Source of the DNA: a virus
Virus record (IMG/VR): IMGVR_UViG_3300037461_000409
Span: 34,780-98,779 of that record
Direction: 5' to 3' (one strand)
Length of the DNA: 64,000 nucleotides
In this document: piece after piece, positions 14,375-62,093 of the stretch
Layout of the letters: every line of letters starts with the position of its first letter
Numbering within the stretch: position 1 is the stretch's first letter
Notes under the pieces: model-generated
Databases searched by the model: none
Seen by the model: only the letters and a program-made list of their open reading frames with translations
Told to the model about the DNA's origin: nothing
Made by a program: the position numbers and the translations under genes

Positions 14375-14736
14375 TGTCGTGGCTCGCTGTTGAAGTTCCG
14401 TGCTCCCACCCCAAACTCCGGCGGAAACGATCTGCGGATGCGCTGGAGCTTGACTGGCCAGGATCTCTCGCAGACATCGACGAGGATGCTGTCGGAGTCC
14501 ACTCCGTCTGTGATCTCCAGGGACACCTCTCCCTTTGGCACCGGGGGCGCCACGCACAGCAGAACCGCCCCATCATCGGACATGGGAGCATATCCTCGGC
14601 CAGTCCCGCCGTGACATCGCTGACCAGAGAGCTCGACCGTCAAGGGGGTGGAGACCGGGAATTCACCGGAAACGACGATCAGATCGCCGCCGGCCATCGA
14701 GAACGCGCTGGGAGAACAGGCGTCGATGCGGATCAT
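14371..14736 (-). CDS. Ig/IPT-like domain structural protein
   Basis: PSAFSMAGGDLIVVSGEF...CVAPP; paralogous to the upstream ORF. Confidence 0.55.
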   Translation of the reverse strand: MIRIDACSPSAFSMAGGDLIVVSGEFPVSTPLTVELSGQRCHGGTGRGYAPMSDDGAVLLCVAPPVPKGEVSLEITDGVDSDSILVDVCERSWPVKLQRIRRSFPPEFGVGARNFNSEPRQ

Positions 14737-48460: not shown

Positions 48461-49918
48461 CTAGACGCCGTAGAGCCGAGAGTTGTCGAGCCCAGCGCTT
48501 CCGCTGGCGCGACCGACGTTCTTGTAGATCACGGCTCGCCCGGGGGCGTAGACCACGGGCGTCCCGTAGATCAGCTGCATCCACCGGATCGCGGTGGAGA
48601 TGGTGGCGAGCGGGATCTTCAGGAACGGCGCCAGCTGCTTGAACGAGAAGAACTCCAGGTTCTGCTGGATCAGGACCGCCTTGGAGGTCCCGGGGAGCTC
48701 GGCGTTCCAGTCGGTGAGCACAGTGGTTGCGCCGGAGCGCGCCGTGGTCTTCGCCAGCTTGCACGTTGTCGCCAGGCCATCCTTGGTTGAGCGATAGAGC
48801 TCGAAGGCCGTGCCGGCGTCACTGCCGTCGGCGACGGTCATGGTCACCTTCTTGCCGCTGCTGACAGTGCAGGGACCTGTCATCGCCACCGCGGCCGACC
48901 GGCCGTAGCGGTTGATGGCGCAGACCTTGTAGTAGTAGTCGCCGCTGTCGCTGGCGACCCAGTACGAGGTCTCGCCCCCGCCAAGCGACACTTCCGTCGG
49001 AGCCACGCTCTCGGTCGGGGTGCTCGGGCGCTTGCCCGAGGGGCCCGCGGCGGTCGATGGCGCCACCGGGCCAAACTGGATGAAGGTGTCGGGGCTGAAC
49101 TTGATCGGTCCGAACTGGCTGTAGAAGCCCTGGATGTTCAGACCGACCATCCCGTTCTGCCACCCAGCGGGATTGAGCGGGATGCGCTCGGCCGGGTAGA
49201 AGCCCTTGGCCAGATCGCTGAAGGCGCCATCGGCCAGGTAGAGGTCGGTAGCGCGCCCGTAGTTGGGCTCGGTCTTGACGATCAGGCACCCGTCGTTGAG
49301 CGCATCCTCGGACAGCGGGCGGCCACGCATGTCGATCACGTTCAGGGTGGGATTCGGGGCGCCGGCGGTGATCTGCTTGACCAGGCCATCCCACTGCTGG
49401 GGGATCATCGTGCTGTCACCGAAGAACAGCGCCCGCTCCACCTGGCGCAGCAGCCAGGCGGTGCCGTTCACGGTCTCCTGCGCGATCACGTTGCCGTGGG
49501 CCGGGCGGATCAAGGACATGACGTGCGACACCGACCGCGTCACACCCATGTACTTGACCACGCTGTACTCACGGCTGTAGGTCGAGTCGTCCGACTCGGG
49601 GAGATCCCCCTCGTCGATGAACGCCGCGACCCCCGAGCCGTACTCGCGCAACCTGTTGTGCTCCTCGACCGTGTTGAACGCCGGCAGCTTGGTCACGCTC
49701 TGCCACAGCCGCACGTCATCCATGCGGTAGGTGACGACCTTCAGCGTGTTCTCCAGGGACTCGATCCTGAGCGGGAAGCCCTCGCCCGCGGACACGCCCG
49801 GGTTGTTGATCGACTGACCAGCGGTGAGCGCCTTGCGCAGATCGGCCAGGTCATCCGGAGACGGCACCCCGTACCCTTCGACGCCGGCGTAGTCCCGCCA
49901 CGACACGTTGCCTTGCAT
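48461..49918 (-). CDS. Major capsid protein (SPO1/Twort-like)
   Basis: LRKALTAG...LRIESLE, NTVEE, E.ALFFGDS...WDGL, NVIDMRG, YG.P; 485 aa. Confidence 0.95.
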   Translation of the reverse strand: MQGNVSWRDYAGVEGYGVPSPDDLADLRKALTAGQSINNPGVSAGEGFPLRIESLENTLKVVTYRMDDVRLWQSVTKLPAFNTVEEHNRLREYGSGVAAFIDEGDLPESDDSTYSREYSVVKYMGVTRSVSHVMSLIRPAHGNVIAQETVNGTAWLLRQVERALFFGDSTMIPQQWDGLVKQITAGAPNPTLNVIDMRGRPLSEDALNDGCLIVKTEPNYGRATDLYLADGAFSDLAKGFYPAERIPLNPAGWQNGMVGLNIQGFYSQFGPIKFSPDTFIQFGPVAPSTAAGPSGKRPSTPTESVAPTEVSLGGGETSYWVASDSGDYYYKVCAINRYGRSAAVAMTGPCTVSSGKKVTMTVADGSDAGTAFELYRSTKDGLATTCKLAKTTARSGATTVLTDWNAELPGTSKAVLIQQNLEFFSFKQLAPFLKIPLATISTAIRWMQLIYGTPVVYAPGRAVIYKNVGRASGSAGLDNSRLYGV

Positions 49919-49971
49919 GATGTTCTCCTCTGCTCGTGTGAGTTGACGCCCGAACGTCTCGGGCGGGTTGT

Positions 49972-51063
49972 CTACTTGCCCAGCTCGGCCTTGATGTCGC
50001 CGAGCATGCTCTTGGAGATGTGCCCGGTCGTCTCGTACAGAGCGACCGCGCGCTCAAGCGGCTCCCCGCAGGGGGCCATGAAGTTGTTGTTGCGGGACTT
50101 CTGCATGAGACGCTCCATGCCCTCAAGGATCTGCTCGCGCGAGAGCGCATCCCCCGCCTGGCCGCCGTCGAAGGACTTGGCGAGCGCCCTGGTGCCACTC
50201 ACGCTCTTGCGCGGCATGGGCGTCGACTCGACCACCCCCAGGCGCTCGGAGAGCGCGCGGATCTGGGTCTGCTGGCTCTTGATCAGGTCCGCCTGCTCAA
50301 GCACGGTCTGGCCGATGTTGCGGAAGGACTTGGCGAGAGCCGCGTTGAAGCTGCTCTGCCGCTCGCTCGACTTTTCCATGCTCGTGCGCAGGAAGTCGAG
50401 ACCCTCGGCAATCAGCTGAGAGTGCCGCTCGATGAAGGGGCTGATCTCGTAGTCCTGCTTGAGCTGGTCATCGTTCGCGAACAGCTCTTTGAAGGACTTG
50501 TCCAGATCCTCGCCCTCGGGCTCGGCCGTCCCGCCAAGCAGCTGCACCAGCTCTTGCTGCTCGGCCTTCTCGATGGTCCCGTCGGCGAGCTTGGCCGCGA
50601 GCTCGGCGCGGCGGTCCACCGGGCCGTCGGCCCCGGCGGCCGTGGCTTCCAGCACGTCCAGGGCCTTCATGAGGTCGCTCTCGGCGATGTCGGACTTGCA
50701 GGCTTTCTTCTTCTTCATGTCCTCGCCATCCTCCTCGCCTTCGGCCTTCTTCGCCCTCTTCTCCTCCTCCTCCTCCCCCTCTTCCTCCTCCTCCTCGCCC
50801 TCTTCCTTCTCGTCCTCTTCCTCGGCCTTGGCGACCGACTTCTGCGTCTTGGCCCAAGGGGGAGCCGGCTTCTTCTCCTCGTCCTTGTCCTTCTCCTGCT
50901 CCTCGGCCTTCTTGGCCTTGCCGACCATCGGTTTGCCGGGAGCCTTGTCCGACAGACCACCATCGGCGGCCTGCTGAGACTGGGGCATCCCTCCCTCGCT
51001 CTTGCCGAACATCCTCTCGGCCGCAGCGGTCGCGGCCTCGTCGGCGGTCATCAGGTGTTGCAT
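49972..51063 (-). CDS. Scaffold/core protein
   Basis: Acidic low-complexity coiled coil between protease and capsid; at least 12 hydrophobic-x-K[S/A] motifs. Confidence 0.78.
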   Translation of the reverse strand: MQHLMTADEAATAAAERMFGKSEGGMPQSQQAADGGLSDKAPGKPMVGKAKKAEEQEKDKDEEKKPAPPWAKTQKSVAKAEEEDEKEEGEEEEEEGEEEEEKRAKKAEGEEDGEDMKKKKACKSDIAESDLMKALDVLEATAAGADGPVDRRAELAAKLADGTIEKAEQQELVQLLGGTAEPEGEDLDKSFKELFANDDQLKQDYEISPFIERHSQLIAEGLDFLRTSMEKSSERQSSFNAALAKSFRNIGQTVLEQADLIKSQQTQIRALSERLGVVESTPMPRKSVSGTRALAKSFDGGQAGDALSREQILEGMERLMQKSRNNNFMAPCGEPLERAVALYETTGHISKSMLGDIKAELGK

Positions 51064-51065
51064 TC

Positions 51066-51842
51066 TCAGGCTCCTTTCCTGGTCATCCTGGCCGCGAATC
51101 GCCAGATTCGTTCGGCGGCCCGCCCGGTGATGTGCGGGTGCCGTTCATGGATCACGCGCATGGCCTCGGCCTTGGTCAGCCGTCGCTTGCGCTTCTTTTT
51201 CTGCGGACGAGACGGGCTACTGACGCCCTCCAGTGATTCGGTGCGCAGAGCAAACCCATCGCCAGGGGTCGGAGTCGCTGGAGGGGATATGGCGGCTCCG
51301 GCGGTGAGCATCTTCTCGACCGCCAGCATGCTCTTGGCAAGGACATCCAGTCCGGTTTTGGTGTTAACGGGGCAGTTAGTTACAGCTACATTGGTGACGC
51401 GAGCCGAAGCGATTGTCCTGCCGTCATCACCGGAGCGCCTGAGAACCTTGCCCTCGATGGAGAACCCCAGACGCCGGTCCGTCTGCTGGAGCGCCTGGGC
51501 CAATTCCCAGAGCTTGTCCGCCTGGGTGGTGCCTGCGAGGAGATAGCCCTCCATCCGCGTCGCGGGCTTGCCGTCTACGACCGTGCGCTCGACCTTGAGC
51601 GGATAGCCAACGACCCCGGCGGTGTCCCGGCTGTGGTTGTCGTTGAGCCAGCCGTTCCGGATGAAGTCCGAGAACTCCAGGCCGCGCTGGAGTACCACCT
51701 CGCCCTGCTTGTCCTCGTGCTCGGTGCTGATTACCCCGCCGATCCGGCGTTCTTTGCCAGGCTCGCCGGCCTTGTGCCACACCTCGATGGGAATGTCGAT
51801 CCGGAACGGGATTTCGGGACTGACAGGATACTCAGGGGCCAT
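51066..51842 (-). CDS. Prohead protease
   Basis: IGGVISTEHED.QGE.V.Q.GL, NDNH, LGFSIEG, NVAVTNCPVN. Confidence 0.9.
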   Translation of the reverse strand: MAPEYPVSPEIPFRIDIPIEVWHKAGEPGKERRIGGVISTEHEDKQGEVVLQRGLEFSDFIRNGWLNDNHSRDTAGVVGYPLKVERTVVDGKPATRMEGYLLAGTTQADKLWELAQALQQTDRRLGFSIEGKVLRRSGDDGRTIASARVTNVAVTNCPVNTKTGLDVLAKSMLAVEKMLTAGAAISPPATPTPGDGFALRTESLEGVSSPSRPQKKKRKRRLTKAEAMRVIHERHPHITGRAAERIWRFAARMTRKGA

Positions 51843-51905
51843 ACGCGCCTCATCGGCACCCCGCCTCTTTGTCAGGCCCCTGGGGTTGGATCGGATGTGT
51901 CTCTA

Positions 51906-51935
51906 ACGCTACGGGCGACCGAGATTAGCTGTCAA
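51906..51935 (-). promoter_or_regulatory. Sigma70-like promoter for the protease-scaffold-capsid operon
   Basis: TTGACA-N18-TAGCGT ahead of one of the few intergenic gaps. Confidence 0.5.
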
Positions 51936-52146
51936 CCTTTTTCGCAATGACCAGCCGACGGGCATCGTCGGCGAGCGCCTTTGATAGCTCTGACCCTACC
52001 TGCAAGTCGATGGGCACGGGCTCGCCGCATTGGCGACAGATCACCTGTACCGCGCCCTTGTCGATCAGCAGCATGGACGTGCGAATCTTAAGCTTTTCTC
52101 CCGCGTGGTAGACCACCATGTGCGAGCAGGATGGGCACCTGGTCAT
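51925..52146 (-). CDS. Small zinc-ribbon protein (Com-like architecture)
   Basis: RCPSC...ICRQC, 73 aa, ATGA-coupled to the MuF fusion. Confidence 0.7.
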   Translation of the reverse strand: MTRCPSCSHMVVYHAGEKLKIRTSMLLIDKGAVQVICRQCGEPVPIDLQVGSELSKALADDARRLVIAKKVDS

Positions 52147-55133
52147 TGGCGCAGCTGTCCAGGGCCAAGGGTGAGTCGACCGGCTTGCAGCCGCCGACCG
52201 CGACGCTCGGCCTCTTGGTCGAATACCTCACGGTTGGCCTCGGTGCCACGCTCGTCGCGGCCCTCCATCTCGGGCATCGGGTGGGCCCAGTTTTGATTGG
52301 GCGGGGCCAATGCTCGCATGCGATCCTGTTTTTCCTTCGGACCGTCGGTGAACCCGCGGCGCTTCTTCTTTCTCCGCCGCTCCTCGCTCGCCGGATGGTC
52401 ACCGGCCATCCTCGGCGCGAACGCCACCTGTCCGGGAGTACGCGCGGGATCGCCGTAGTTGCCCATGGTCCCGACGGAAGAGCGGTGGCTGATGTCGACC
52501 GCCAGGGCATCGGCCTTGCCGAACAGGTCGAGCTGCTCGTGATGTTCGAGCAGCGACCAGTCGGCCGAAGCCGCCGCGGGCCCGGCCTCCCAGCGGATCT
52601 TGTCGACCCGCGTGAGGCTCTCCTCGCCAGCGCCAGCCCGAGCCCCGTGGGGCCGGTCACCGCGGATGTACTCCACTGGTCGCAAGCCCTTGTCCGCAAG
52701 CGCCCTGTAGGTGTTCCCCTGCTCGGTCGCAAGCTGGTAGGTGATGAACAGCCCGGGCTTGCTGAGATCGCCGCGCTTGCTTGTCTCCAGCAGGTCGAGC
52801 AACCGGGCGATCAGCATGCTCGCGGCGTTCTTGGTCGTGCCGTCGCTGGCGACCCGGGTGAGCTCGACGACGTTGCGGGGATCCAGCCCGCGCAGAGCCC
52901 TGCCGGTGGGATGGCCGGCGGTGGCGACCGCGACCAGGCGATTGCCGCGCTTGACGCCGATGGCGTACATGAGGCCGCGCGGGTTGAGGTAGGGCAGCGT
53001 CTTGTGGTGCTCGGCGATGAACTTCGCCGCCTCGGTCTTGGGCACGTTGACCAGGCGTAGCTCGCGGTGCTCGCGGTCCATGCTGTCGGCAAGGATGGCC
53101 GCGGCCACCCACGTCGGGATCGCCATCCCCTCCCGGAACCGCTCGGGGTTCCAATCGTCCATCCACCCTCGGCGGTGCTTGACCTTGGGCAACTCGATTC
53201 CGGTCTCACCCTGGGCCGCATGGGCGTAGGTCTCGCCGGCGATGTGGACCAAGCGCTCGGCGATCATCAGGCGCTGGTCGTCGGTGTAGGGTTCGCCCTG
53301 GCCATCCTTGTAGGGAACGTGGAGCAGATCGGGGAGGTCGGAGTAGGTGAAGCCCTGCCACTCGGGCTCCTCGCCCCCCTCCGGCTCCTGGTCGCCCAGC
53401 TTGGCGATCATTCCGTAGTCCACGTCCTCCCAGACCTTGCGCGCGGCGGCGATCATGTCGTGCGCCAGCACGTCCGGGTCCTCGCCGTCCCACGCGCCCT
53501 CGGGGCGCTTGATCGGTTCCTTGTAGCCGCGCTCTCCTTCCTGCGGAGCTCCACTGGGGCCGAACCGTTCATGCAGGCGTGGCCCGCCCTTCGGCTCCTC
53601 TGGCTGATAGGACCGCGTGTGCTGCGGATCCGCCCAGCGTCCGCCGCGCGGGCCGAGGTAGAGCTGCCGGGCCTTGACCAGCTCACCCTTTCGATACTTG
53701 CCCGCGAGACAGTTGGCGCGGAACTTCTCCACCGGGATCGTGGTCGCCGATCCCCAGAACCCGGGGTTGTCGTAGTGGCTCAGATAGGCGTGCTTGGCGC
53801 TGGCCAGGTCGGGCCAGCCAAGCATGATCTTGTCCTCGTCCACCTCCGTGAACTCCGGAGCGCGCATCTGATGAACCACGTAGACCTGTTTGGCGTTCTC
53901 GTCCGGGCCCAGGAACACGTCCAGGTGGTCTCCGTCGGTCCCCTCGGTCATGCGGATGTAGCCGTATGGCACGCGCATGCGCGTCTCGCCGTCGGTGCCA
54001 GTGGCCTGGTCATGCCAACGACGGATGCTGCCCTTCCGATTCTCGACGCTGATCGGCAAGCCCGCGAACATCGTGCGGTAGTGGAGCTTGCGCGCCTTGC
54101 TCAGTGGCTGGTAGTGCTGAATCAGCTTCAGCGCCAGCTTGCGACGCTCCCACATGTCCCGGCGTCGCTCGGGATCCTCTTCCTTGGTGGCCATCACCCG
54201 CAACTGATCGACCACGCGCAACAGTCGCGCCACCAGGTCATCCGCGGCGACGGGCGCTTCACTCTTTTCCGACTCCTCCGTGAGCATGCTCTCGGGCACG
54301 AGATCCCAGTCATCGTTGAACGCCATGCCCCGGGGGACGCGGGTCAGGACGCACTGGCACCAGGGATGAACGGCGCCCATAACCGGCAGCCAGTCGTCGC
54401 GCTTGCGCCCGACGTTGTTGACCCCCTGCTCGGCCCACCAACTCGCCGGATGGGCCTCGGGCTTGCCATCCTCGTCGAGGTACAACCGCTTGCAATCGGG
54501 GCACGCAGTCGGTTCTGGCATTTTTGCCAGAAGCTCCTCCGACCCATACCGCCGCATGGTCGACTCCAGAAACCCCTGCTGGTAGGCCATCTGGCTCTCG
54601 GTCGACGCAATCCTCCCCCAGTCGCGCGCCCAGTCCCTGCTCATCTGCCGGAGCTTGGTGGTCAGCGTCCCCACGGCCTCCCGCCTGACCACATTGGCTG
54701 CGGTCTCATCCCGGATGCCCTCGCGGAATTGCTGGGCCAGCTTTTCGTCGATGGGTACCACGGCCGGCCCCACCTCGCCTGACCAGCGGGTGCCCAGGCC
54801 GACGCAGAACTGCCCAGCGCGATCTCGCGCGAGCTCCCAAGCTCGACGCTCTTGTTCGCTCATCTCGACCGGGTTCTTTTCGAGGTATCGCTTGAAGTCC
54901 TCGTAGCTCATCTGCGCGAGGCCGGGCAGCTTTTCCAGCAGCCTACCGTACTCGAAAGCGTCCAGGGTCAGGTCGCGGATGTCCTCTTCGCGGAGGTATC
55001 CGAGGTCGACCAGGCGCTTGAGCTCATCTGGCCCCACCCGCAAGCCAGTGGTGGCCACCGACACCGCGGTGCTGGCGTCGCGGACGATCTGGCGAAGCTC
55101 CTCAAGTTGCTGGGGGGTAAGCAGCGGCATCAA
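52143..55133 (-). CDS. MuF-like head morphogenesis protein fused to inorganic pyrophosphatase-like and Mom/XF1762-like GNAT domains
   Basis: RIASTE...ACPDC...HPWCQC (MuF); ISVENRKGS.R...YGYI...DGDHLDV...DEDKIMLG (InPase); EA..FI.EHH...ELTRVASDG..NAASML...ITY....E.G..YRA...K.RWE (Mom-like). Confidence 0.85.
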   Translation of the reverse strand: MMPLLTPQQLEELRQIVRDASTAVSVATTGLRVGPDELKRLVDLGYLREEDIRDLTLDAFEYGRLLEKLPGLAQMSYEDFKRYLEKNPVEMSEQERRAWELARDRAGQFCVGLGTRWSGEVGPAVVPIDEKLAQQFREGIRDETAANVVRREAVGTLTTKLRQMSRDWARDWGRIASTESQMAYQQGFLESTMRRYGSEELLAKMPEPTACPDCKRLYLDEDGKPEAHPASWWAEQGVNNVGRKRDDWLPVMGAVHPWCQCVLTRVPRGMAFNDDWDLVPESMLTEESEKSEAPVAADDLVARLLRVVDQLRVMATKEEDPERRRDMWERRKLALKLIQHYQPLSKARKLHYRTMFAGLPISVENRKGSIRRWHDQATGTDGETRMRVPYGYIRMTEGTDGDHLDVFLGPDENAKQVYVVHQMRAPEFTEVDEDKIMLGWPDLASAKHAYLSHYDNPGFWGSATTIPVEKFRANCLAGKYRKGELVKARQLYLGPRGGRWADPQHTRSYQPEEPKGGPRLHERFGPSGAPQEGERGYKEPIKRPEGAWDGEDPDVLAHDMIAAARKVWEDVDYGMIAKLGDQEPEGGEEPEWQGFTYSDLPDLLHVPYKDGQGEPYTDDQRLMIAERLVHIAGETYAHAAQGETGIELPKVKHRRGWMDDWNPERFREGMAIPTWVAAAILADSMDREHRELRLVNVPKTEAAKFIAEHHKTLPYLNPRGLMYAIGVKRGNRLVAVATAGHPTGRALRGLDPRNVVELTRVASDGTTKNAASMLIARLLDLLETSKRGDLSKPGLFITYQLATEQGNTYRALADKGLRPVEYIRGDRPHGARAGAGEESLTRVDKIRWEAGPAAASADWSLLEHHEQLDLFGKADALAVDISHRSSVGTMGNYGDPARTPGQVAFAPRMAGDHPASEERRRKKKRRGFTDGPKEKQDRMRALAPPNQNWAHPMPEMEGRDERGTEANREVFDQEAERRGRRLQAGRLTLGPGQLRQ

Positions 55134-55369
55134 ATCGATCCCTTGAGCGTCTCTTCCATCCGGCGCACCATCGCCTGGCGGATGCGCTCGACCACCGGAC
55201 CAGCCAGGTCAATCGATTCCTGAAGCGCCCGGGCGTCGAGCTTGCGCGGCTGCTGATCGTCGGCGGTGGCCTTGCACAGATGATCGTGGGCCTCAGATCG
55301 TAACTTTTCGATCAGCGGTTCGAGCTTGTCTGCCAGCTCCCCCTCATCCGCCTGAATCAACACCCTCAT
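55130..55369 (-). CDS. Small head-module protein
   Basis: Coupled 79-aa ORF with LCKA motif. Confidence 0.6.
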   Translation of the reverse strand: MRVLIQADEGELADKLEPLIEKLRSEAHDHLCKATADDQQPRKLDARALQESIDLAGPVVERIRQAMVRRMEETLKGSI

Positions 55370-55770
55370 GGCACGCCGGCGACCAGGTAGGTCACGATTG
55401 CGTCCTCGGTTGTCGAGGCGTTGCTGGCCTTGATCTCCGTGATCTCGCCCTCCCAGAACAGCTTGGCCTTGGCGCCGCTCGTGGGAGTGAGCTTGAACTG
55501 CTCGGTCCCGCCGTTGAGCTTGAGCGTCAACTCCTGGTCGGTCTCCATGTACAGCAGGTTCGCCGTGCCCACGCCACCCAGGTCCAAGTCAGCGTCGGTT
55601 GTGGATTTGGGGATCACCCGCGTGTCGCTCTTGCCCACCTCCAGATCCGTGCGGATGGTCTGGATCGTGGTCTTTTCCGCTCGCTCGAATCCGACCAGCT
55701 TCTCGTCCGAGTCCAGGGTCGCCAGGATCGCGATGCTGTGCTTCACTCGATAGGTGCTCGCCATCGTCAA
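55366..55770 (-). CDS. Hypothetical beta-rich virion protein
   Basis: Directly after portal. Confidence 0.65.
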   Translation of the reverse strand: MTMASTYRVKHSIAILATLDSDEKLVGFERAEKTTIQTIRTDLEVGKSDTRVIPKSTTDADLDLGGVGTANLLYMETDQELTLKLNGGTEQFKLTPTSGAKAKLFWEGEITEIKASNASTTEDAIVTYLVAGVP

Positions 55771-57467
55771 ACCTCGATTCGGTAGGTGCGCCGGTGGCGC
55801 ATAGACTTTTTCTGCTCCTCCTCCGGCTCGCCCTCGGTGCCGGGGAACTCATCGAACTGAGAGAGCATCTCATCCCAGGGCCCCGGCTGTCCCTCCTCCT
55901 GGCCCTCGTCTCCCGGCGGCTGACCGCCCTCGGACTCCGGCGGCTGTTCGCCTTCTCCCTCCTCCGGGGCGGCGCCCTCGGCTCCCGCTGGACCCATCTG
56001 CTGCTGCTGGGCCGCCATCTCCTTTGCCTGCGAGAACTGCAGCCACGTCGGGTCGAGGATGCACTCGCCCTTACCGTCTGGCAGCGGCGGTAGATCGTCC
56101 TCGGCCCGGATCTCGTCTACGGTCTTGAGGTAGGTGGACTGTTTCTTCTGCAGGTCAGCGATCTCGGCCCCGCTTCTCATGTCCAGGCCGGTGAAGACGA
56201 TCTGGTAATCCTCGTCGATACGCCAGATCAAGTAGCGGTTGAGCCACTCTCCGAGTGCCCGCAACAACGGACGCAGGCCGCGGTCCTTCGAGCTCTTGAT
56301 CCTCCCCTCGGCCGGCGCCTGGAACATCTGCTGCTGCTGGCCGGTGTTGCCGAACAGGAAGTTGATCTCCGATGGATCAATCTGATAGACGGCGCTGGCG
56401 ATCTTGATCAGCCAGTCCAGGAACGCCGAGAACTCCATGTCCCGGTTGCTGCTATGGAGGTTGATGTACTGCAGATCCTCGGCGTTGATCACCGGCGTCC
56501 GCCAGGCGTTCGCCACGCCGGCGATCTGCTGGTACCACTGGCGACGGAAGGCTTCGAGCTTGGTGTCGGGGATGGCGCCCTTGATGTTGATCAGGCCCTT
56601 GGTCACGCTGCCCTGGGAGAAGAATCGGGCGTTGTACTCGAAGGCCCAGAGCATCGCCGTGACCGTGCGGATGAGCATCTCGATCTCACTCATGCCATAG
56701 CCATTGAGACGAATGCCCGTGCGGGGGTTGCGGACGCCGAAGCACAACTCCGACGCCGCGAACTCGGCGATCACCACGTCGTCATAGACCTGAACATAGC
56801 GCACGCGCTTGGGGTCGTCGCTCGGTTCAGCGGCCGTGGGGATGTCAGCCAGGCGGATGGTGCTGGCATCGACGGCGTAGAAGTCGCTGGGCTCGCCCTT
56901 GCGGTTGTCGACCACCTCGAAACAGCCCTGGTCGTAGACGAGGCTGTCCCGGATCAGCTTGCGAACGAAGGACTCCAGCGAGTCCTTGCCATAGGCGCGG
57001 GTGCTCCCGGTGTAGCGCAGCCAGTCCTCAATGGCCTTCGCCCGGACCATCTCTTTCTTGGTCGGCGACTTCTCTTCGTCCCGGAGCTTGATCTGGTAGC
57101 CCGGCTCCCGGTCGTTCAGCTGGGGGATGCAGAAGTTGGCGACCTGGTTGACGCGGGTTTGGATGATCGCCGAGACCACCGGGACCTTGCGGTGGATGTC
57201 TTCGAGCATGGCATAGGTCATGCCCGACGGGCGGTCCTTGAACCCCAGCTGATCGATCACGCTGAATGGGTCGTACAGTAGGGCTTTGGCCCCCTGATCC
57301 GCAGGATCTGGCATGTCCGGCGGGTTGTTCAGGTGCCCGTCGTTCTTGGCGCCCGGCGCCGCCTGGGCGGCCTTGGCGAACGTGTCGAACGCCAGGCCAC
57401 CCATGTAGCCCAGCGCCCCCCCGAGAGCGCTGGACACGCTCTCGCGCAGTCGATCCTGCCAGCCCAT
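55767..57467 (-). CDS. Portal protein (SPO1/Twort-like)
   Basis: AIIQTRVNQV..F, RKLIRDSL.YDQ, AVDASTIR, RNPRT...GYG.SE.E, NAWR.P, DMEF, IDPSEINF. Confidence 0.95.
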   Translation of the reverse strand: MGWQDRLRESVSSALGGALGYMGGLAFDTFAKAAQAAPGAKNDGHLNNPPDMPDPADQGAKALLYDPFSVIDQLGFKDRPSGMTYAMLEDIHRKVPVVSAIIQTRVNQVANFCIPQLNDREPGYQIKLRDEEKSPTKKEMVRAKAIEDWLRYTGSTRAYGKDSLESFVRKLIRDSLVYDQGCFEVVDNRKGEPSDFYAVDASTIRLADIPTAAEPSDDPKRVRYVQVYDDVVIAEFAASELCFGVRNPRTGIRLNGYGMSEIEMLIRTVTAMLWAFEYNARFFSQGSVTKGLINIKGAIPDTKLEAFRRQWYQQIAGVANAWRTPVINAEDLQYINLHSSNRDMEFSAFLDWLIKIASAVYQIDPSEINFLFGNTGQQQQMFQAPAEGRIKSSKDRGLRPLLRALGEWLNRYLIWRIDEDYQIVFTGLDMRSGAEIADLQKKQSTYLKTVDEIRAEDDLPPLPDGKGECILDPTWLQFSQAKEMAAQQQQMGPAGAEGAAPEEGEGEQPPESEGGQPPGDEGQEEGQPGPWDEMLSQFDEFPGTEGEPEEEQKKSMRHRRTYRIEV

Positions 57468-57484
57468 GGTCGCTCCTCGGTCGG

Positions 57485-60400
57485 TCAGTCGCGCTTCCGG
57501 AACGCCTGCCTCACCATCGGGTCACTGTCATCGACCACGGTAGTCGGAGGAACGGCGGCCCCCATGAAACCGAACCACGCGGGGTCGCCCCCGTTGCCCT
57601 GGTTGCCCGCGGCGTCGTCTTCGAGCGTCTGATCGAGCACCTGCTGGCGCATGAACGCCTCACGGTCGTCCGCCTGGTTGGGCAACGCGGCCTCGCCCTG
57701 GTAGATCGTGCCCTTCATCATGTCCACGTTCAGCCGCCGCGGCTGATCGTAGTGCCGGGCGCCGACCCCGAGTTCCATCCCACCGTCCATGGCCTTGCAA
57801 ACGTACTCGTCCGAGGACAGTCCCAGGTCGACCGAGCCCATGCGGACGCTCTTGTGCGCCTCGGGCAGGGGCGGATTGTCCGGCTCGACATGCGGCTTCA
57901 GCTTCGGCATCTTTCCAACTCCTTCCTTGTCCAGCTTGATCAGAGGGGCCTTGGCCTTCCTGGCGGTGCCCCTCTCGATGCGGTCATCCTCCGGTGACGC
58001 AACAGACGCGCTTCGGCGCCAGTGCTGAAGGTTGTGCTCCTTGCGGAGCTTCTCAGCCTGGTTCGCGTGCTCGTGCATCTTGGACCGAGCGGCTTCGACG
58101 GCCTCGTGCGGATGGCCCTGTTCCTGTCTCTTCGCCGACCGCTCGCGCCACTTGTCACTCTGGGTGTCGTGGTGCTGGATCTCCTTCTTCGCGGCCTCGG
58201 TCTTGACGTGTCGCTCTGCCTGCTCTTGGGTTCCCCCTTGAGCTCCCATGCCAGGGTACCAGTAGACGTAGCCACCTGGCCCCATCTTCCGGAACCCTCC
58301 CTTGGCCCCTCCTGGGATCGGGGACCAACCGGACCCCGGGGGGCGCTTGCCGAGCTTGGCTGCGATGCGGTGGAGCAGCCCGGGCTTTTTCTCCTCCGCG
58401 TGCTCGCCTGCTACCGGCTTGTACGGGCTTGGTCTCTCCCTGCCCGTTCGCTCGGCCACGGCGGTCATGGCCGACTTGCCCAACTTGCCCCGCTCGTCGA
58501 TCAGATCGGCCCTCGCCATTCTCGCACCCTCGAACTGGGCCGTGAGGTGCTGTGACGGCGAACCAGAGACGATCGCTCGCAGGTAGGCCCGATAGTGCAA
58601 TCCCTCTTGCCCCTCGTGCTTCGATGCGTCCAACAACTTCTTGGCCGTATCTTTCCACCGGTTTGCTTCTGCCTCACCCTCCGAGGTTCCTCCACTACCG
58701 CCGGCCGCTTTCTGCGAGGCTTCCTCGGCCACGCGACTTCTCTCGGCGGCGTGTGCAACATCCTCCTCGTTGCCCGTCCGAGACGCATTTTCGTGAGCGA
58801 TAGCGGCGTTCTTGTGGGCCATGTACGCCGCTCCGTGGGAGTCCCGCGCTTCCTTGTGCGGATCGGCCCGCATCATCTTTTGCGCCGGCAGCTTCTTGAG
58901 GACTTCCTCGTGTTCGATCATCGCGGCCATGTGCTTCTCCGCGGCCTTATGGTGCGGATTTCGAGGCACGTCCTTCGGCTCTGCGAGAAGCGCCGCCGTT
59001 GCGCGATGGTGCTCGGCCAGGTCGGCCTCGTGCGGCTCGGTAGTTGTCACGCCCTTCCCCGGATACCAGTAGATGTACCCGGACCCATGGCGCTTGCGGT
59101 ATCCACCGTGGGCGCTCCTCGGCACCGGCTCGTATCCCGCGGGGGCTTTCGACGACTTCTCCATTCTCTGGAGCTTGATGTAGTAGTGCCTGTCCTCCGT
59201 CAGGTGGTCCATCGCAATCTCCCGTGCGACCTTCCGGTCGCGGGTGTGCTCCATCTCGACCTTGATCCCGGCATGGAGCTGTTCCTGGTCGAAGTCCTCC
59301 GGACGCTTGCCCGCAGCCACCCCTCCGGGGATGCGCTCAGCCTTCTCAAGCCAGTCGTCGAGTTCCGAGGTCAGGCCGATCATCGCCCGCAGGGCCTTGG
59401 CCACCTCCACCCCAAAGAACCGGTCCATCGCCGCGTTGCGGTCCTCGCCCTCGGGCATCTTCTGGATCTCATCCCACTGGCTGCGCACGCGCTTCATGAT
59501 CTCCGCATGTTTTCGCTCGGCCGGATCCTTCGCGGGTTGTCCACCGGGCTCCCACTTGAAGTTGATGCCGTTTCCCTTGTCTCCGATGTGAGCCTCTGGG
59601 GGGGGCTTGCCGTCGAGAATCTTATGGGGATCGGTTCCGTAGTCCTTGAGCAGCTTCGCGAACTGCTTGTCTTCCTCGTCGTCTCCGAACACCTCGCCGA
59701 TGGTCTGGCGCGCGTCCGATTGTTCGATCACGACGTTCATGTCGCCGCCCTTGAAGGAAAACTCGGGGCTCCTGCCGGCGAGGCGGCTGATCAGGAACTT
59801 AGGAGTCATCTCCCCGAGTTCCTGTGCCGCCTGCTGGAGCAGAGCCTTCGAGCTCGGCGGCAGATCATCGCGGCGGTCGATCTCGGCAGAAAGCGCCCGT
59901 TTGACGCCGCCGATCATGGCCTTGACCTTGGCCTTATCCTCGGGCTTGCGCTCGCCGTCCTTGGGCTTGGGAAACATCTCCTGCGCCAGCCGGATCTTGA
60001 CCAGACACTCGACCGCCTCGGGCCGGTCGAACATCACCTCCGGCATCTTGTCCGAGAACAGGTGGGTGTTGTCGGCCAACCGAATGGCGCTCCCGAAGTG
60101 GTCGCCCTTCCAATCGACGGCCGTGCCGCTATGGTTGGCGACCGCCTGGACGTAGGTCTCGAACTTGTCGGCGCCGAACAGTTCCTCGTACTTCTTTCGC
60201 TGTTGCATCACCAGGACCGCGCTCGCCTGGGGATGGTAGTTGTCCTTCACCGCAAAGCCACCCTGGGCAATGGCTGGGGTGGTGTAGCCCATGTCATGAT
60301 CGATCCAAGCCTGATAGGCCATGAATCGATCCCGCGGGTCCAGCTCGACCCCGCCCTTTTCCAGCTGGTCGAAGATCGCGTCGGACATCCGGGCGTTCGA

Positions 60401-61171
60401 CGCCAGGTGCCGCACGCCATGGTCGCCCAGGGTCCGCCGGGCGCTCTCGGTTTCCTGCTGCGCGAGCTTTCGGACGTTCTCTTCCATCACCTCCGTCAGC
60501 TTCTGCCTGTCGATGCCCGCGGCCTGACCATGCTTGACCATCTGGCCCATCATCTCCTTCGCCTTCTCGACGTTCGAGGGGATGATGTAGCCCTGCCGGC
60601 CGAGGTGCTCGATGTGAGCGTCGACGGCCTTGCCGAGGTCTCCCTTGTACTCCCTGGGCGGGCCCTGGCGGTCCTCGATCTGCTTCTGGACGTTCTCCCA
60701 ATCGGCGGTCATCACCGCCCGGGTCTTCTTGTCCAAGTCGTTGAAGCCCGGGGGCAGCTGACTAGGGTCGATGATCACCTCGGCCTTGGGTGGCTTGTCC
60801 TCTTTCTTCGCCTCTGGCTCGGGCTTGGCAGGTTCTTTCTCGGGCGCTGTCTTGCCCTCGCCCGCGCCTCCCTCCTGGGGCTTGCTCGTGATCCCCACGC
60901 CCGGATACCAGTAGATGTACCCGGCCCCATGCTTCTTGTGGTACCCGCCGTGCTTGCTGTTGGCGATGGGAGAAAAGCCAGCCGGAGCCTTGGAGGTCGA
61001 GTCGGCTTTCACCAGGTCCAATACCAGTCTCTCGGACTTCGCGCCCTTCGCGTGCTGGTAGATTCCCATGATGTAAGCGTAGTCCCCCGACCGACCCTCT
61101 TCCTTAGCGCGACGCTTGGCCAGCGACCACAGGTGCTCGTCGCGCTTGGTCTTCACGGCTCCGACTGGCAT
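57485..61171 (-). CDS. Large multidomain internal-head polyprotein (HD phosphohydrolase, DUF5661-like, 3x GYxYWYPG repeats)
   Basis: DHG..H...HDMGY...H...H...LADN (HD); GIKVEMEH...EIAMDHL.E..YY.KL (DUF5661-like); GGAGGGAG SD before ATG at 61171. Confidence 0.8.
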   Translation of the reverse strand: MPVGAVKTKRDEHLWSLAKRRAKEEGRSGDYAYIMGIYQHAKGAKSERLVLDLVKADSTSKAPAGFSPIANSKHGGYHKKHGAGYIYWYPGVGITSKPQEGGAGEGKTAPEKEPAKPEPEAKKEDKPPKAEVIIDPSQLPPGFNDLDKKTRAVMTADWENVQKQIEDRQGPPREYKGDLGKAVDAHIEHLGRQGYIIPSNVEKAKEMMGQMVKHGQAAGIDRQKLTEVMEENVRKLAQQETESARRTLGDHGVRHLASNARMSDAIFDQLEKGGVELDPRDRFMAYQAWIDHDMGYTTPAIAQGGFAVKDNYHPQASAVLVMQQRKKYEELFGADKFETYVQAVANHSGTAVDWKGDHFGSAIRLADNTHLFSDKMPEVMFDRPEAVECLVKIRLAQEMFPKPKDGERKPEDKAKVKAMIGGVKRALSAEIDRRDDLPPSSKALLQQAAQELGEMTPKFLISRLAGRSPEFSFKGGDMNVVIEQSDARQTIGEVFGDDEEDKQFAKLLKDYGTDPHKILDGKPPPEAHIGDKGNGINFKWEPGGQPAKDPAERKHAEIMKRVRSQWDEIQKMPEGEDRNAAMDRFFGVEVAKALRAMIGLTSELDDWLEKAERIPGGVAAGKRPEDFDQEQLHAGIKVEMEHTRDRKVAREIAMDHLTEDRHYYIKLQRMEKSSKAPAGYEPVPRSAHGGYRKRHGSGYIYWYPGKGVTTTEPHEADLAEHHRATAALLAEPKDVPRNPHHKAAEKHMAAMIEHEEVLKKLPAQKMMRADPHKEARDSHGAAYMAHKNAAIAHENASRTGNEEDVAHAAERSRVAEEASQKAAGGSGGTSEGEAEANRWKDTAKKLLDASKHEGQEGLHYRAYLRAIVSGSPSQHLTAQFEGARMARADLIDERGKLGKSAMTAVAERTGRERPSPYKPVAGEHAEEKKPGLLHRIAAKLGKRPPGSGWSPIPGGAKGGFRKMGPGGYVYWYPGMGAQGGTQEQAERHVKTEAAKKEIQHHDTQSDKWRERSAKRQEQGHPHEAVEAARSKMHEHANQAEKLRKEHNLQHWRRSASVASPEDDRIERGTARKAKAPLIKLDKEGVGKMPKLKPHVEPDNPPLPEAHKSVRMGSVDLGLSSDEYVCKAMDGGMELGVGARHYDQPRRLNVDMMKGTIYQGEAALPNQADDREAFMRQQVLDQTLEDDAAGNQGNGGDPAWFGFMGAAVPPTTVVDDSDPMVRQAFRKRD

Positions 61172-61187
61172 GGCTCTCCCTCCTTGC

Positions 61188-61769
61188 CTACAGGTCGCCA
61201 AAGGTCTCGTCGACGGTCACGCCGAGGATGGGACGGAACTGGTTGTACTGCGCCTGCGTCACGCTGGTGTCCCCGGTGCGATTCAGGACCGCCTGGGCCA
61301 GCTCGATCCACTGGTTGTTCGCCCCAACGGCCGCCTGCACGTCCGCGTCTGATGGCGCTTTCTCCGAGCCGGTGGTGGCGGGCGTGCCCTTGACCGCCAC
61401 GACTGTGATCGTGCCGGCGACGTTCTTGGCCACGATCCTCGCGCGGCAGCTCTTGCCCGATGTCAGCCCCGTCAGGAAGCTCCCACTGTGGATGGCGAAG
61501 TCGGCCAGGGCGTCGATGTCCTTGACCACCCCGTCCACGACCACCTGTCCGAGTGCGTAGTTGATGTTCCAGAGCGTGTCGCCCGTGCCGGTGGCCTGAT
61601 CGCTGGGCGTGGTCGGATCGTCGGTCAGAACGCCGAACAGCACCTTGTTGGTCTCGTGCGCGCGGATGGCCTCGAACCACCTGGCGATGATGTCGCTGAT
61701 CTCCTCGATGTCCTCGGGCTGGTACTTGTGGCTCTTGCGGCTTTCAGCGACGACAGATCGGCTGCTCAT
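61188..61769 (-). CDS. Hypothetical protein (possibly virion)
   Basis: 193-aa ORF with GGAGG SD. Confidence 0.65.
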   Translation of the reverse strand: MSSRSVVAESRKSHKYQPEDIEEISDIIARWFEAIRAHETNKVLFGVLTDDPTTPSDQATGTGDTLWNINYALGQVVVDGVVKDIDALADFAIHSGSFLTGLTSGKSCRARIVAKNVAGTITVVAVKGTPATTGSEKAPSDADVQAAVGANNQWIELAQAVLNRTGDTSVTQAQYNQFRPILGVTVDETFGDL

Positions 61770-61778
61770 TGGTGCCTC

Positions 61779-62093
61779 CTATTCCACGTCCTGGTCGTGG
61801 ATGAGATAGAGCTCCCCATCGGGAGAGCTGGTCATGTTCGAGTTGTACTTCGAGAAAGCATGCGCGTACTGGAAAGAGTAGGCCCGGCGGTCCAGCTCGG
61901 CCGGTGATATCCCCGCGTAATAGGGGGTGGCCGAGGGGTCGGTAAAGGGGCCCAGGTGAAACAGCTGGTCGGGCCCGAAGCCGTTGCGCTTGAGCTCGCT
62001 CTTGACGTGCCACCACCAGATGCCGAAGTTGCGGTAGTAGAGCGGCACCTTCTGCAGGATCGCCACCACGTTCTGCGCTTGTTCCTTGGTCAT
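61779..62093 (-). CDS. ulx: Ulx-like protein (P1 DarB packaging accessory)
   Basis: LQKVPLYYRNFGIWWWHVKSELKRNGF resembles the P1 Ulx core as recalled (LxKxPxxYRxYGxYWxxxKxxLxxxGY); ATGA-coupled downstream of the DarB-like gene as in P1. Confidence 0.65.
   Translation of the reverse strand: MTKEQAQNVVAILQKVPLYYRNFGIWWWHVKSELKRNGFGPDQLFHLGPFTDPSATPYYAGISPAELDRRAYSFQYAHAFSKYNSNMTSSPDGELYLIHDQDVE

Follow-up and report, generated by a model that had tools for sequence, protein, structure and literature searches.

We examined a 64,000-nucleotide stretch of viral DNA (hereafter the window; positions 34,780 to 98,779 of IMG/VR record IMGVR_UViG_3300037461_000409), which forms the final 64 kb of a 98,779-bp contig from an uncultured phage, and concentrated on its head-gene module, where the genes for two large multidomain proteins flank the portal gene, one on each side. 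These are a 996-amino-acid fusion protein, which carries a pyrophosphatase (InPase) and a Mom-like module, and a 1228-amino-acid protein that we refer to as the pre-portal protein. Both contain copies of a four-residue motif (a hydrophobic residue, any residue, lysine, and a small residue) that also occurs in the capsid, scaffold, and protease of the same module. An original prediction made from this DNA had listed instances of the motif and had read the large proteins as polyproteins that are packaged in the prohead and cut into separate injected enzymes; every listed instance proved to be present at its place. Below, an arrow marks the presumed scissile bond, and positions on either side of it are numbered P3–P1 and P1′–P2′. 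The genes of the head module are the following.

48461–49918, minus strand: major capsid protein, 485 amino acids (phrog_752, E 2.7e-85; SPO1 Gp6.1, 9vel, E 1.6e-74)
49972–51063, minus strand: scaffolding protein, 363 amino acids (phrog_15087), with 12 [LIVMF]-x-K↓[AS] sites
51066–51842, minus strand: prohead protease, 258 amino acids (phrog_1028, E 4e-47), with sites at K24, K170, and K224
51925–52146, minus strand: Zn-ribbon protein, 73 amino acids, with LSK56↓A
52143–55133, minus strand: InPase/Mom-like fusion, 996 amino acids (PF18823 at residues 353–472; Mom-like at 685–811)
55130–55369, minus strand: 79-amino-acid protein, with LCK33↓A
between the fusion and portal genes: small protein of the head module, 134 amino acids, with the motif at K47 and K55
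55767–57467, minus strand: portal protein, 566 amino acids (PF04860, E 1.1e-19), with N-terminal FAK32↓A
57485–61201, minus strand: pre-portal protein, 1228/1238 amino acids (DUF5661 at 638–682)

The capsid protein is ~35% identical to capsids of SPO1-like, Bacillus, and Bacteroides myophages, and the capsid, scaffold, and protease are distant relatives of their counterparts in SPO1/Twort-like phages. The protease matched phrog_1028 strongly and Pfam Peptidase_S78 at 17.2 bits, under the cut-off of 21. Pfam and PHROG profile searches returned no family match for the 73-amino-acid Zn-ribbon protein or the 79-amino-acid protein. Proteins that carry InPase elsewhere bear head or virion protein annotations. 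The gene context of homologues was taken from IMG/VR loci, some of which are cited below by L numbers.

The motif in the capsid, scaffold, and protease

We counted matches to [LIVMFW]-x-K-[AS] and compared them with 500 composition-preserving shuffles. The whole head block (4192 amino acids) contained 32 sites where 10.2 were expected, as compared with 33 against 38.0 in the genome outside it, or 20 against 33.8 once a motif-rich DarB-like open reading frame (ORF) described later was removed; the predicted enrichment in head proteins was thus borne out, and relatives agreed with it. The scaffold had 12 sites against 1.5 expected (p<=0.002) and the protease three against 0.6 (p=0.02; WHK24↓A, LAK170↓S, and LTK224↓A). 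The 1238-amino-acid ORF of the pre-portal protein was borderline, with eight sites against 3.7 (p=0.03), and capsid and portal had one site apiece, near expectation. For both large proteins the evidence is therefore the position and conservation of the sites, not their number. Scaffolds were also motif-rich in five IMG/VR relatives with portal or protease sequences 55–84% identical to those of the window (11 sites against 1.6 expected; 7 against about 1.1, or 14 against 1.8 when glycine was allowed at P1′; 14 against 1.1; 10 against 1.0), and the tail genes of relatives had almost no motif sites. In Staphylococcus phage 812 the scaffold had seven sites against 1.45 expected and the protease seven against 1.7.

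The excess was specific to lysine at P1. In the window's scaffold, alanine or serine followed the lysine in 12 of 15 hydrophobic-x-K occurrences, and no comparable alanine/serine excess was found in the scaffold with arginine, glutamate, aspartate, or glutamine at P1. When scaffolds and proteases were taken together, P1′ was alanine, serine, or glycine in 78 of 98 hydrophobic-x-K occurrences, against a background of about 26%. A logo of 63 scaffold sites gave L>M>I at P3, K at P1, S>A>G at P1′, and a hydrophobic residue at P2′. One relative (L010) used P1′ glycine in scaffold and cargo alike, in numbers too small to count as co-variation.

In the capsid, LRK29↓A30 (lysine codon at 49832–49834) aligned with VVK24↓S25 of phage 812, in keeping with the proposal that the motif matches the maturation site of Twort-like capsids. 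The SPO1 capsid has LNK↓A at the aligned position, and the sequence DLRK↓AL is kept in L003, L004, L009, and L011. Two structures of the phage 812 capsid protein are in the Protein Data Bank (PDB), one with the full 463-residue chain (5lii) and one with 439 residues (9row), which by alignment offsets starts at S25. Sites in the other head proteins were likewise retained: that of the 73-amino-acid protein as LVK↓AL in L004 and FRK↓AL in L003, that of the 79-amino-acid protein in L002 and L004 (L011 has LRK39↓A), and that of the portal as LSK32↓A and FEK32↓A amid diverging flanks. Because of the capsid alignment with phage 812 and the excess of motifs in the scaffold, the protease is taken to cut after lysine in this context, and sequence comparison makes it very probable that the motif is the site at which the prohead protease processes capsid and scaffold.

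Three further observations concern these genes. Residues ~175–205 of the protease (window 51198–51365) duplicate residues ~27–57 of the capsid N-arm (49694–49876), K↓MLTAG...GDGFALRTESLE in the former and K↓ALTAG...GEGFPLRIESLE in the latter (52% identity over 31 amino acids, E 3e-8), and this capsid-mimic region includes VEK177↓M, aligned to the capsid cleavage site. Phage 812 has the same pairing (protease FMK164↓SFLTGHG, capsid VVK24↓SFQTGYG), and L009 shows the same mimicry with IHK↓ALAAGQ; the capsid-like copy may be how the protease gets built into the shell. The major capsid gene of two relatives contains group I introns (RF00028, 63–65 bits; 10780–11031 and 11121–11380 in L007, 10233–10487 in L010), which the capsid gene of the window lacks. 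Finally, K47 and K55 of the 134-amino-acid protein were rejected as likely cleavage sites on the grounds of poor conservation or of a position within a folded helix.

Module junctions of the two large proteins

Two short conserved elements, which we call tags, start just after motif sites in the large proteins: the GPYIGPRGGKWAD..HTIPWK tag and the YWYPG tag. The fusion protein is laid out as follows.

54264–55133, minus strand: residues 1–290, head-protein domain (tblastn, AlphaFold), ending ESEK290↓S
54096–54263, minus strand: residues 291–346, helical hairpin (AlphaFold helices 296–316 and 320–346), ending LSK346↓A
53673–54095, minus strand: residues 347–487, InPase OB-fold pyrophosphatase (PF18823, Foldseek, AlphaFold), ending LVK487↓A
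52515–53672, minus strand: residues 488–873, YLGPRGGRWAD tag, low-confidence stretch, and Mom-like module, ending FGK873↓A
52146–52514, minus strand: residues 874–996, conserved C-terminal tail (GTMGNxGxPARTP, basic stretch)

The lysine codons of the last three sites lie at 54096–54098 (K346), 53673–53675 (K487), and 52515–52517 (K873). In an AlphaFold model built on a 52-sequence alignment, residues 1–288 were ordered and the predicted local distance difference test score (pLDDT) dipped at residues 289–294 and again at the K346 site, where the helical hairpin ends. The InPase domain was modeled with pLDDT >90 and gave way from order to disorder at K487, after which residues ~489–606 were disordered, with predicted helices beyond and an unreliable model of the Mom-like region. 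The InPase assignment was firm (PF18823, E 1.9e-31, 109 bits against a gathering threshold of 26.8; family I pyrophosphatases in Foldseek, probability 1.00), and a Foldseek search with the whole fusion model returned matches to InPase only. The Mom-like module matched phrog_1384 ('Mom-like', E 3.3e-13) and scored 24.6–26.4 bits against PF25680 (cut-off 27.1), over the first half of that model only.

The N-terminal domain (module 1) is shared with Lysinibacillus and Bacillus myophages (tblastn, 2e-29) and recurs in proteins of Herelleviridae whose annotation is 'minor capsid' or hypothetical. It had been labeled MuF (Phage_Mu_F/SPP1 gp7, PF04233), for which the sole signs were this tblastn similarity and a C..C...HPWCQC pattern seen by eye. 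Pfam and PHROGs did not confirm that label: residues 1–346 had no Pfam match at E<=0.1 and no PHROG match at E<=0.01.

The junctions of the fusion recur among its homologues. In about 40 of them, [LIVMF]-x-K-[ASG] stands directly before the RKLH that opens InPase, and G-x-[MI]-[IV]-K-[ASG] closes it, followed by unrelated sequence; the InPase junction likewise reads K↓G in a relative whose scaffold often has P1′ glycine. InPases of BcepF1-like phages are without the motif, which argues that it is not intrinsic to the InPase fold. At the other end of the protein, high-scoring segment pairs (HSPs) with homologues of the Mom-like module stop at 861–866, 6–10 residues short of K873, and the tail block starts at 871–886, so K873 sits in the joint between the two. 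A motif lies within 46 residues upstream of the C-terminal tail (VGTMGNxGxPARTP), mostly about 14–20 residues away, in 20 of 22 homologues, and in the shortest homologues the tail comes directly after the InPase cut site. From the motif positions at the InPase flanks and the tail, the minimal form of this family appears to be N-terminal domain, cut, InPase, cut, tail, with extra modules inserted between the cuts. Relatives have Peptidase_C39 and PAPS reductase modules between the N-terminal domain and InPase, and Pfam identified RelA/SpoT, zeta-toxin-like kinase, ADP-ribosyltransferase, RadC, topoisomerase, protein kinase, and C5 methylase domains in other homologues, in agreement with the proposal that these genes provide modular slots. 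The tail itself, with its poly-basic stretch, closes nearly every homologue whatever precedes it and had no family match. Fusion orthologues occupy 12328–17970 in L002 and 1720–8334 in L004/L007 (1881+ and 2205 amino acids).

The pre-portal protein has the following layout.

61007–61171, minus strand: residues 1–55, basic N-terminal leader (homologue HSP starts), ending LVK55↓A
59342–61006, minus strand: residues 56–610, first YWYPG tag, linker, and HD/phosphodiesterase-like domain, with VAK592↓A and LEK610↓A
59156–59341, minus strand: residues 611–672, DUF5661 (PF18905, E 9e-11, model end at K672), ending MEK672↓S
58475–59155, minus strand: residues 673–899, second YWYPG tag and helical module, ending LGK899↓S
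57488–58474, minus strand: residues 900–1228, leader, third YWYPG tag, long helices, and conserved C-block (1104–1228)

It contains eight sites (K55, K181, K203, K592, K610, K672, K899, and K1126), of which five were conserved among 18 strong homologues that are themselves mosaic; K181, K203, and K1126 had been absent from the original list. K592 (FFGxELxK↓A) and K610 (LEK↓A/S) are kept in nearly all 18, different modules follow K610 and K672 in different homologues, and K899 opens K↓SAMxAxxxTGRxRP, a conserved module start in several of them; K55 is moderately conserved, with many homologue HSPs starting at 58–65. In the AlphaFold model, K55, K592, K610, K672, and K899 all fall in low-pLDDT segments between domains. 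K181 and K203 lie inside helices of a large domain and are not conserved as lysine, for which reasons we rejected them as cleavage sites, and VCK1126↓A is perhaps a chance occurrence. The occurrence of the motif at domain boundaries, as originally proposed, is therefore a conserved feature, across about 40 homologues of the fusion and about 18 of the pre-portal protein.

The same model shows the first YWYPG tag as a beta-meander, then a linker, and then the HD-like domain with pLDDT >85, whose His and Asp columns are invariant in 19 sequences. This domain had no Pfam match, and Foldseek with the pre-portal model gave nothing significant; the weak top matches (E >0.03) were mostly phosphodiesterases (PDEs), HD-GYP proteins, and SdeD-type PDEs, which fit, and do not prove, the 'HD segment' named in the original prediction. 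The pre-portal protein of L002 is 1868 amino acids long.

To place the motif relative to module boundaries without reference to domain annotation, we aligned each family all-against-all with BLAST, clustered the internal alignment ends, took these as junctions, and scored those with a motif within 12 residues. In the fusion family 98 of 235 breakpoints were near a motif, against 25.5 +/- 4.5 for random placement (z 16), and in the pre-portal family 46 of 112, against 22.1 +/- 3.7 (z 6.4), z-scores that overstate significance because the homologues are related and their junctions not independent. The informative part is the contrast with controls: motifs with arginine, glutamate, or aspartate at P1, a non-hydrophobic P3, or a non-small P1′ gave z 2.2 or lower. 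In each family lysine ranked first for enrichment among the 20 possible P1 residues (1.81x and 1.44x).

The tags point the same way. The YWYPG tag (PPxGFxPxP..GGYRK..GYxYWYPG) occurs in three copies in the 1228-amino-acid protein and is modeled as a small beta-meander (AlphaFold pLDDT 81–88). The other tag, GP[FY]IGPRGGKWAD..HTIPWK, follows K487 of the fusion; of its 29 occurrences in the homologue sets, 22 have a site no more than 12 residues away. We then scanned IMG/VR blindly with a degenerate DNA pattern for IGPRGGKW, which recovered 95 stretches holding as many as five copies apiece; in 90 of 102 in-frame unique contexts the motif stood 3–10 residues upstream. As a negative control, the same pattern applied to 596 gigabases (Gb) of prokaryote genomes gave 35 matches, about the chance number, with an upstream motif in none of the 31 chance matches and in three of the four true tags, all four of which were in metagenome-assembled genomes. 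Many tag-bearing loci contain adjacent pairs of motif-rich ORFs, and these included a phrog_1028 protease in five of five pairs tested and a neighboring phrog_15087 scaffold in three of five. The blind scan and the ORF pairs together indicate that the tags, the junction motif, and the protease family travel together across many uncultured phages. The IGPRGGKW tag was not found by tblastn in cultured phage records, where the BLAST low-complexity filter may hide it, nor were the tag peptide strings found in the literature searched. In three loci (L060, L067, and L017) the GPYIGPRGGKWAD tag occurs 3–5 times within about 10 kb of a single strand, which would imply very large multi-cassette proteins.

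Proposed processing, packaging, and delivery

Beyond the pre-portal gene lie two genes that bear on the fate of these proteins.

61779–62093, minus strand: Ulx-like gene, 104 amino acids (phrog_1629, E 5e-9)
62090–64000, continuing into contig positions 1–6006, minus strand: DarB-like methylase-helicase ORF, C-terminal part in the window (phrog_10089/11801)

As in phage P1, the Ulx-like gene follows immediately downstream of the DarB-like ORF. The latter, about 2,600 amino acids across the contig ends, contains N6_Mtase, SNF2, and Helicase_C domains and matches phrog_10089 (DarB-like), so that a giant methylase-helicase protein adjoins a Ulx homologue in the head module, as in a DarB/Ulx anti-restriction pair. 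Its N-terminal part has 13 motif sites against 4.2 expected (p=0.002). The ORF shows a motif cluster between methylase and helicase and an intein/HINT insert of about 200 amino acids that is missing from the relative L002.

The genome as a whole is ~98.6 kb with a GC content of ~64% and carries nearly all genes on the minus strand; a DNA-level search found no close cultured phage. Contig bases 1–126 are repeated at 98651–98776 (window 63872–63997), so the assembly closes on itself, and the contig is a closed circle of ~98,650 bp, though classed 'linear'. Outside the head block, an 899-amino-acid protein (window 11858–14557, minus strand) has three motif sites against 0.75 expected (p about 0.04); with so many proteins tested, this excess probably arose by chance.

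The two large proteins share features with polyvalent proteins: each combines several modules (InPase and Mom-like in one, HD-like and DUF5661 in the other), their genes lie by the portal gene, and their homologues swap modules. Their conserved junction sites, which have the same motif as capsid and scaffold, fall in hinges or low-pLDDT stretches. An embedded processing peptidase (MPTase or C-terminal assemblin-like), common in polyvalent proteins without being a fixed trait, was found by Pfam in neither. The sequence-level expectations of the original prediction were all borne out, and its interpretation is supported in part. The most likely reading is that both are polyvalent proteins processed by the prohead protease. 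We infer the specificity of the protease, the packaging and cutting of the large proteins, and their entry into the host and action on its defenses; for packaging, cleavage, and ejection, the grounds are gene position, the head or virion annotations, the DarB/Ulx pair, and precedent. Conserved junction sites make it probable, on balance, that both proteins are cut by the prohead protease, and we suggest more tentatively that the fragments might act as injected anti-defense enzymes.

Under this model, the phrog_1028-type prohead protease would cut after lysine in [L/M/I/V/F]-x-K↓[S/A/G], taking 29 residues off the capsid protein, chopping the scaffold into small pieces, and trimming itself, the portal, and two small proteins. 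The large proteins would be strings of cassettes, each closed by the motif and many opened by a tag after the scissile bond, that co-assemble into the prohead. When the protease fires they would be severed at their joints, and the folded enzyme fragments would be kept inside the head and come out together with the DNA. The tags would stay on the fragments as new N termini, and roles for them in protease docking, head retention, or DNA tethering are guesses. A wider extension, that a broad lineage of uncultured phages with phrog_1028 proteases shares a fixed 'cassette grammar' for head-delivered effectors, in which each module begins with the GPYIGPRGGKWAD..HTIPWK or YWYPG tag and ends in [LIVMF]-x-K↓[SAG], is a possibility that we put forward with considerable reserve.

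The alternative that survives best is that the motif is used only on capsid, scaffold, portal, and protease, and that in the large proteins, which would stay intact whether or not they are packaged, it is a structural or tag-intrinsic feature of module ends, such as a helix cap, a linker, the beginning of the GPYIGPRGGKW tag, or the DUF5661 end. A number of observations weigh against cleavage of the large proteins, and several of them favor this alternative. The fusion has three sites against 1.5 expected, which is not significant and at chance level, and the fusions of relatives have 4–6 against 2.8–4.1. Its first junction is non-canonical here (ESEK290↓S), where relatives read ISK↓G or LDK↓S. 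The motif may belong to the conserved ends of domains or to the tags themselves: the Pfam InPase model spans the N-flank motif; DUF5661 ends in [IMV]-E-K in most members with any residue at P1′, small in about 10 of 22 wider members, so that the K672 site is apparently in part a property of that domain; and the K-small motif is almost invariant before the GPYIGPRGGKW tag, as expected if it were part of the tag. The phage 812 maturation site comes from PDB chain lengths and the genome sequence, and our literature searches found no explicit statement of the cleavage site of the Herelleviridae or phage 812 capsid. The relatedness of the homologues, noted above, counts here as well. Among known phages, P1 DarB was found in virions as a 250 kDa protein (PMC9024508), and the N4 virion RNA polymerase is packaged unprocessed (cited in PMC5512222).

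We nonetheless regard intact large proteins as unlikely. Their integrity would require the coincidence that unrelated module ends (both InPase flanks, the HD-like domain, the Mom-like module, and the C-terminal tail) and both tags all use the tetrad that abounds in the scaffold and marks the capsid cut. Single-position control motifs showed no comparable junction excess (z 2.2 or lower), the segments that hold the sites are flexible, and all five tag-bearing contigs tested carried this protease family.

A second alternative accepts the cuts and holds that the large proteins are assembly or core components that act like scaffold, whose pieces are expelled or kept in the head and do not reach the host as effectors. 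This is how scaffold and the core proteins of T4 are handled, the disordered linkers, tags, and leaders match the size of expelled peptides, and cuts in SPN3US mostly remove propeptides (PMC10052503). The modules here are folded enzymes (InPase pLDDT >90, HD-like >85) whose size would probably keep them from escaping a closed shell, and a DarB/Ulx anti-restriction pair lies next door. Relatives exchange modules of enzyme and toxin-type families (zeta-toxin-like kinase, RelA/SpoT, ADP-ribosyltransferase, NUDIX, protein kinase, and C5 methylase), which fits poorly with a purely structural role. Together these make the second alternative quite improbable.

Cleavage at the junctions by another peptidase (a C39-like domain or a host enzyme), or cleavage after injection, appears more improbable again. 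The fusions of L002 and L004 do carry a C39 papain-like domain, and the two proteins of the window have no peptidase domain yet keep the motif, which is the same as that of capsid and scaffold. C39 peptidases, moreover, are known to cut after Gly-Gly and not after lysine. In favor of such an enzyme, processing of polyvalent proteins by embedded peptidase domains has been proposed (Iyer et al., 2017). Chance occurrence of so loose a tetrad in proteins rich in Lys and Ala would account for counts of 1.5–4 expected per large protein, near the 3–8 observed, and is very improbable as a general explanation given the scaffold excess in seven phages, the conservation of alignment columns, the statistics on junctions, and the result of the blind tag scan. 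For the scaffold and the conserved junction sites it is disproved, and it holds for K181, K203, the sites of the 134-amino-acid protein, and perhaps K1126.

Returning to processed polyvalent proteins as the favored reading, polyvalent proteins rank with the largest and most variable that phages encode, and for their conversion into working units embedded peptidases had been proposed (Iyer et al., 2017). The shared junction motif and tags make their processing testable with a single protease gene, a handful of substrates, and point mutants. Semi-tryptic mass spectrometry, which had been suggested for this purpose, is blind to cuts after lysine; such cuts are hidden from standard tryptic proteomics, which may be one reason why processing went unnoticed. 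If the reading is correct, fragment boundaries could be predicted from sequence for many uncultured phages, the pyrophosphatase, HD/PDE-like, and Mom-like modules would be probable early-acting injected factors, and there would be a route to packaging designed cargo in phage heads. If the cassette grammar were also correct, modules could be gained and lost without loss of packaging or release, and the tags would represent a novel type of signal.

Comparison with known systems

Processed and injected head cargo is not a new idea in kind, having precedents in T4 gp21, in phiKZ and SPN3US, and in the proposals of Iyer et al. (2017). In T4 a single head protease acts at one short motif on capsid, scaffold/core, and packaged, injected proteins, as we propose here. 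The motif of T4 gp21 is L/I-x-E↓, whereas in our phage P1 is lysine, the protease belongs to the phrog_1028 family, and tags after the cut would stay on the fragments. T4 strips a short N-terminal targeting peptide from single-domain cargo, such as IPI–III and Alt with their capsid targeting sequence (the role of T4 propeptides is as cited in PMC10052503 and PMC9024508), whereas several internal cuts per protein are predicted here.

The phages phiKZ, 201phi2-1, and SPN3US likewise process internal and ejection proteins at the capsid motif, and their protease trims itself and the portal. SPN3US gp245 cuts at A-x-E↓, with 14 sites in nine proteins, and 13 of the 14 mapped cuts remove an N-terminal propeptide; several copies of the motif can stand in one propeptide (PMC10052503). 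These cuts differ from those proposed here in that they do not separate enzyme domains, and the phages and the specificity differ as well.

The large proteins resemble the polyvalent proteins that Iyer et al. 2017 (PMC5512222) described from phages and conjugative elements, which include InPase and DarB-type modules and were predicted to be packaged and injected, with processing into units proposed. The likeness extends to the multidomain architecture, the head-gene neighborhood, the swappable effector domains, InPase, and the DarB-type methylase-helicase. Processing was assigned in that work to embedded MPTase or C-terminal assemblin-like domains, whereas here it would depend on a separate protease gene and a junction motif.

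With the Dar system of phage P1 (DarB, Ulx, DarA, Hdf, DdrA/B) our phage shares DarB-like and Ulx-like genes, which here adjoin the portal and protease genes. P1 DarB is described as a 250 kDa virion protein packaged by means of a signal at its N terminus, and cutting of the P1 capsid occurs at E120↓S121 (PMC9024508); the DarB-like ORF here is motif-rich (13 sites against 4.2). MuF polymorphic toxins, related to SPP1 gp7 (Jamet et al., 2017; PMC5576092), similarly join a head-associated N-terminal domain to variable C-terminal effector modules. They differ in having one C-terminal toxin where our proteins have modules in series, and neither PF04233 nor a PHROG MuF family was matched here. Relative to all of these systems, what would be new is, first, the polyprotein-style set of multiple internal cuts by a separate, Lys-specific protease of Herelleviridae type, both of them predicted, and second, an apparent junction grammar with tags after the cut that is widespread in uncultured phages.

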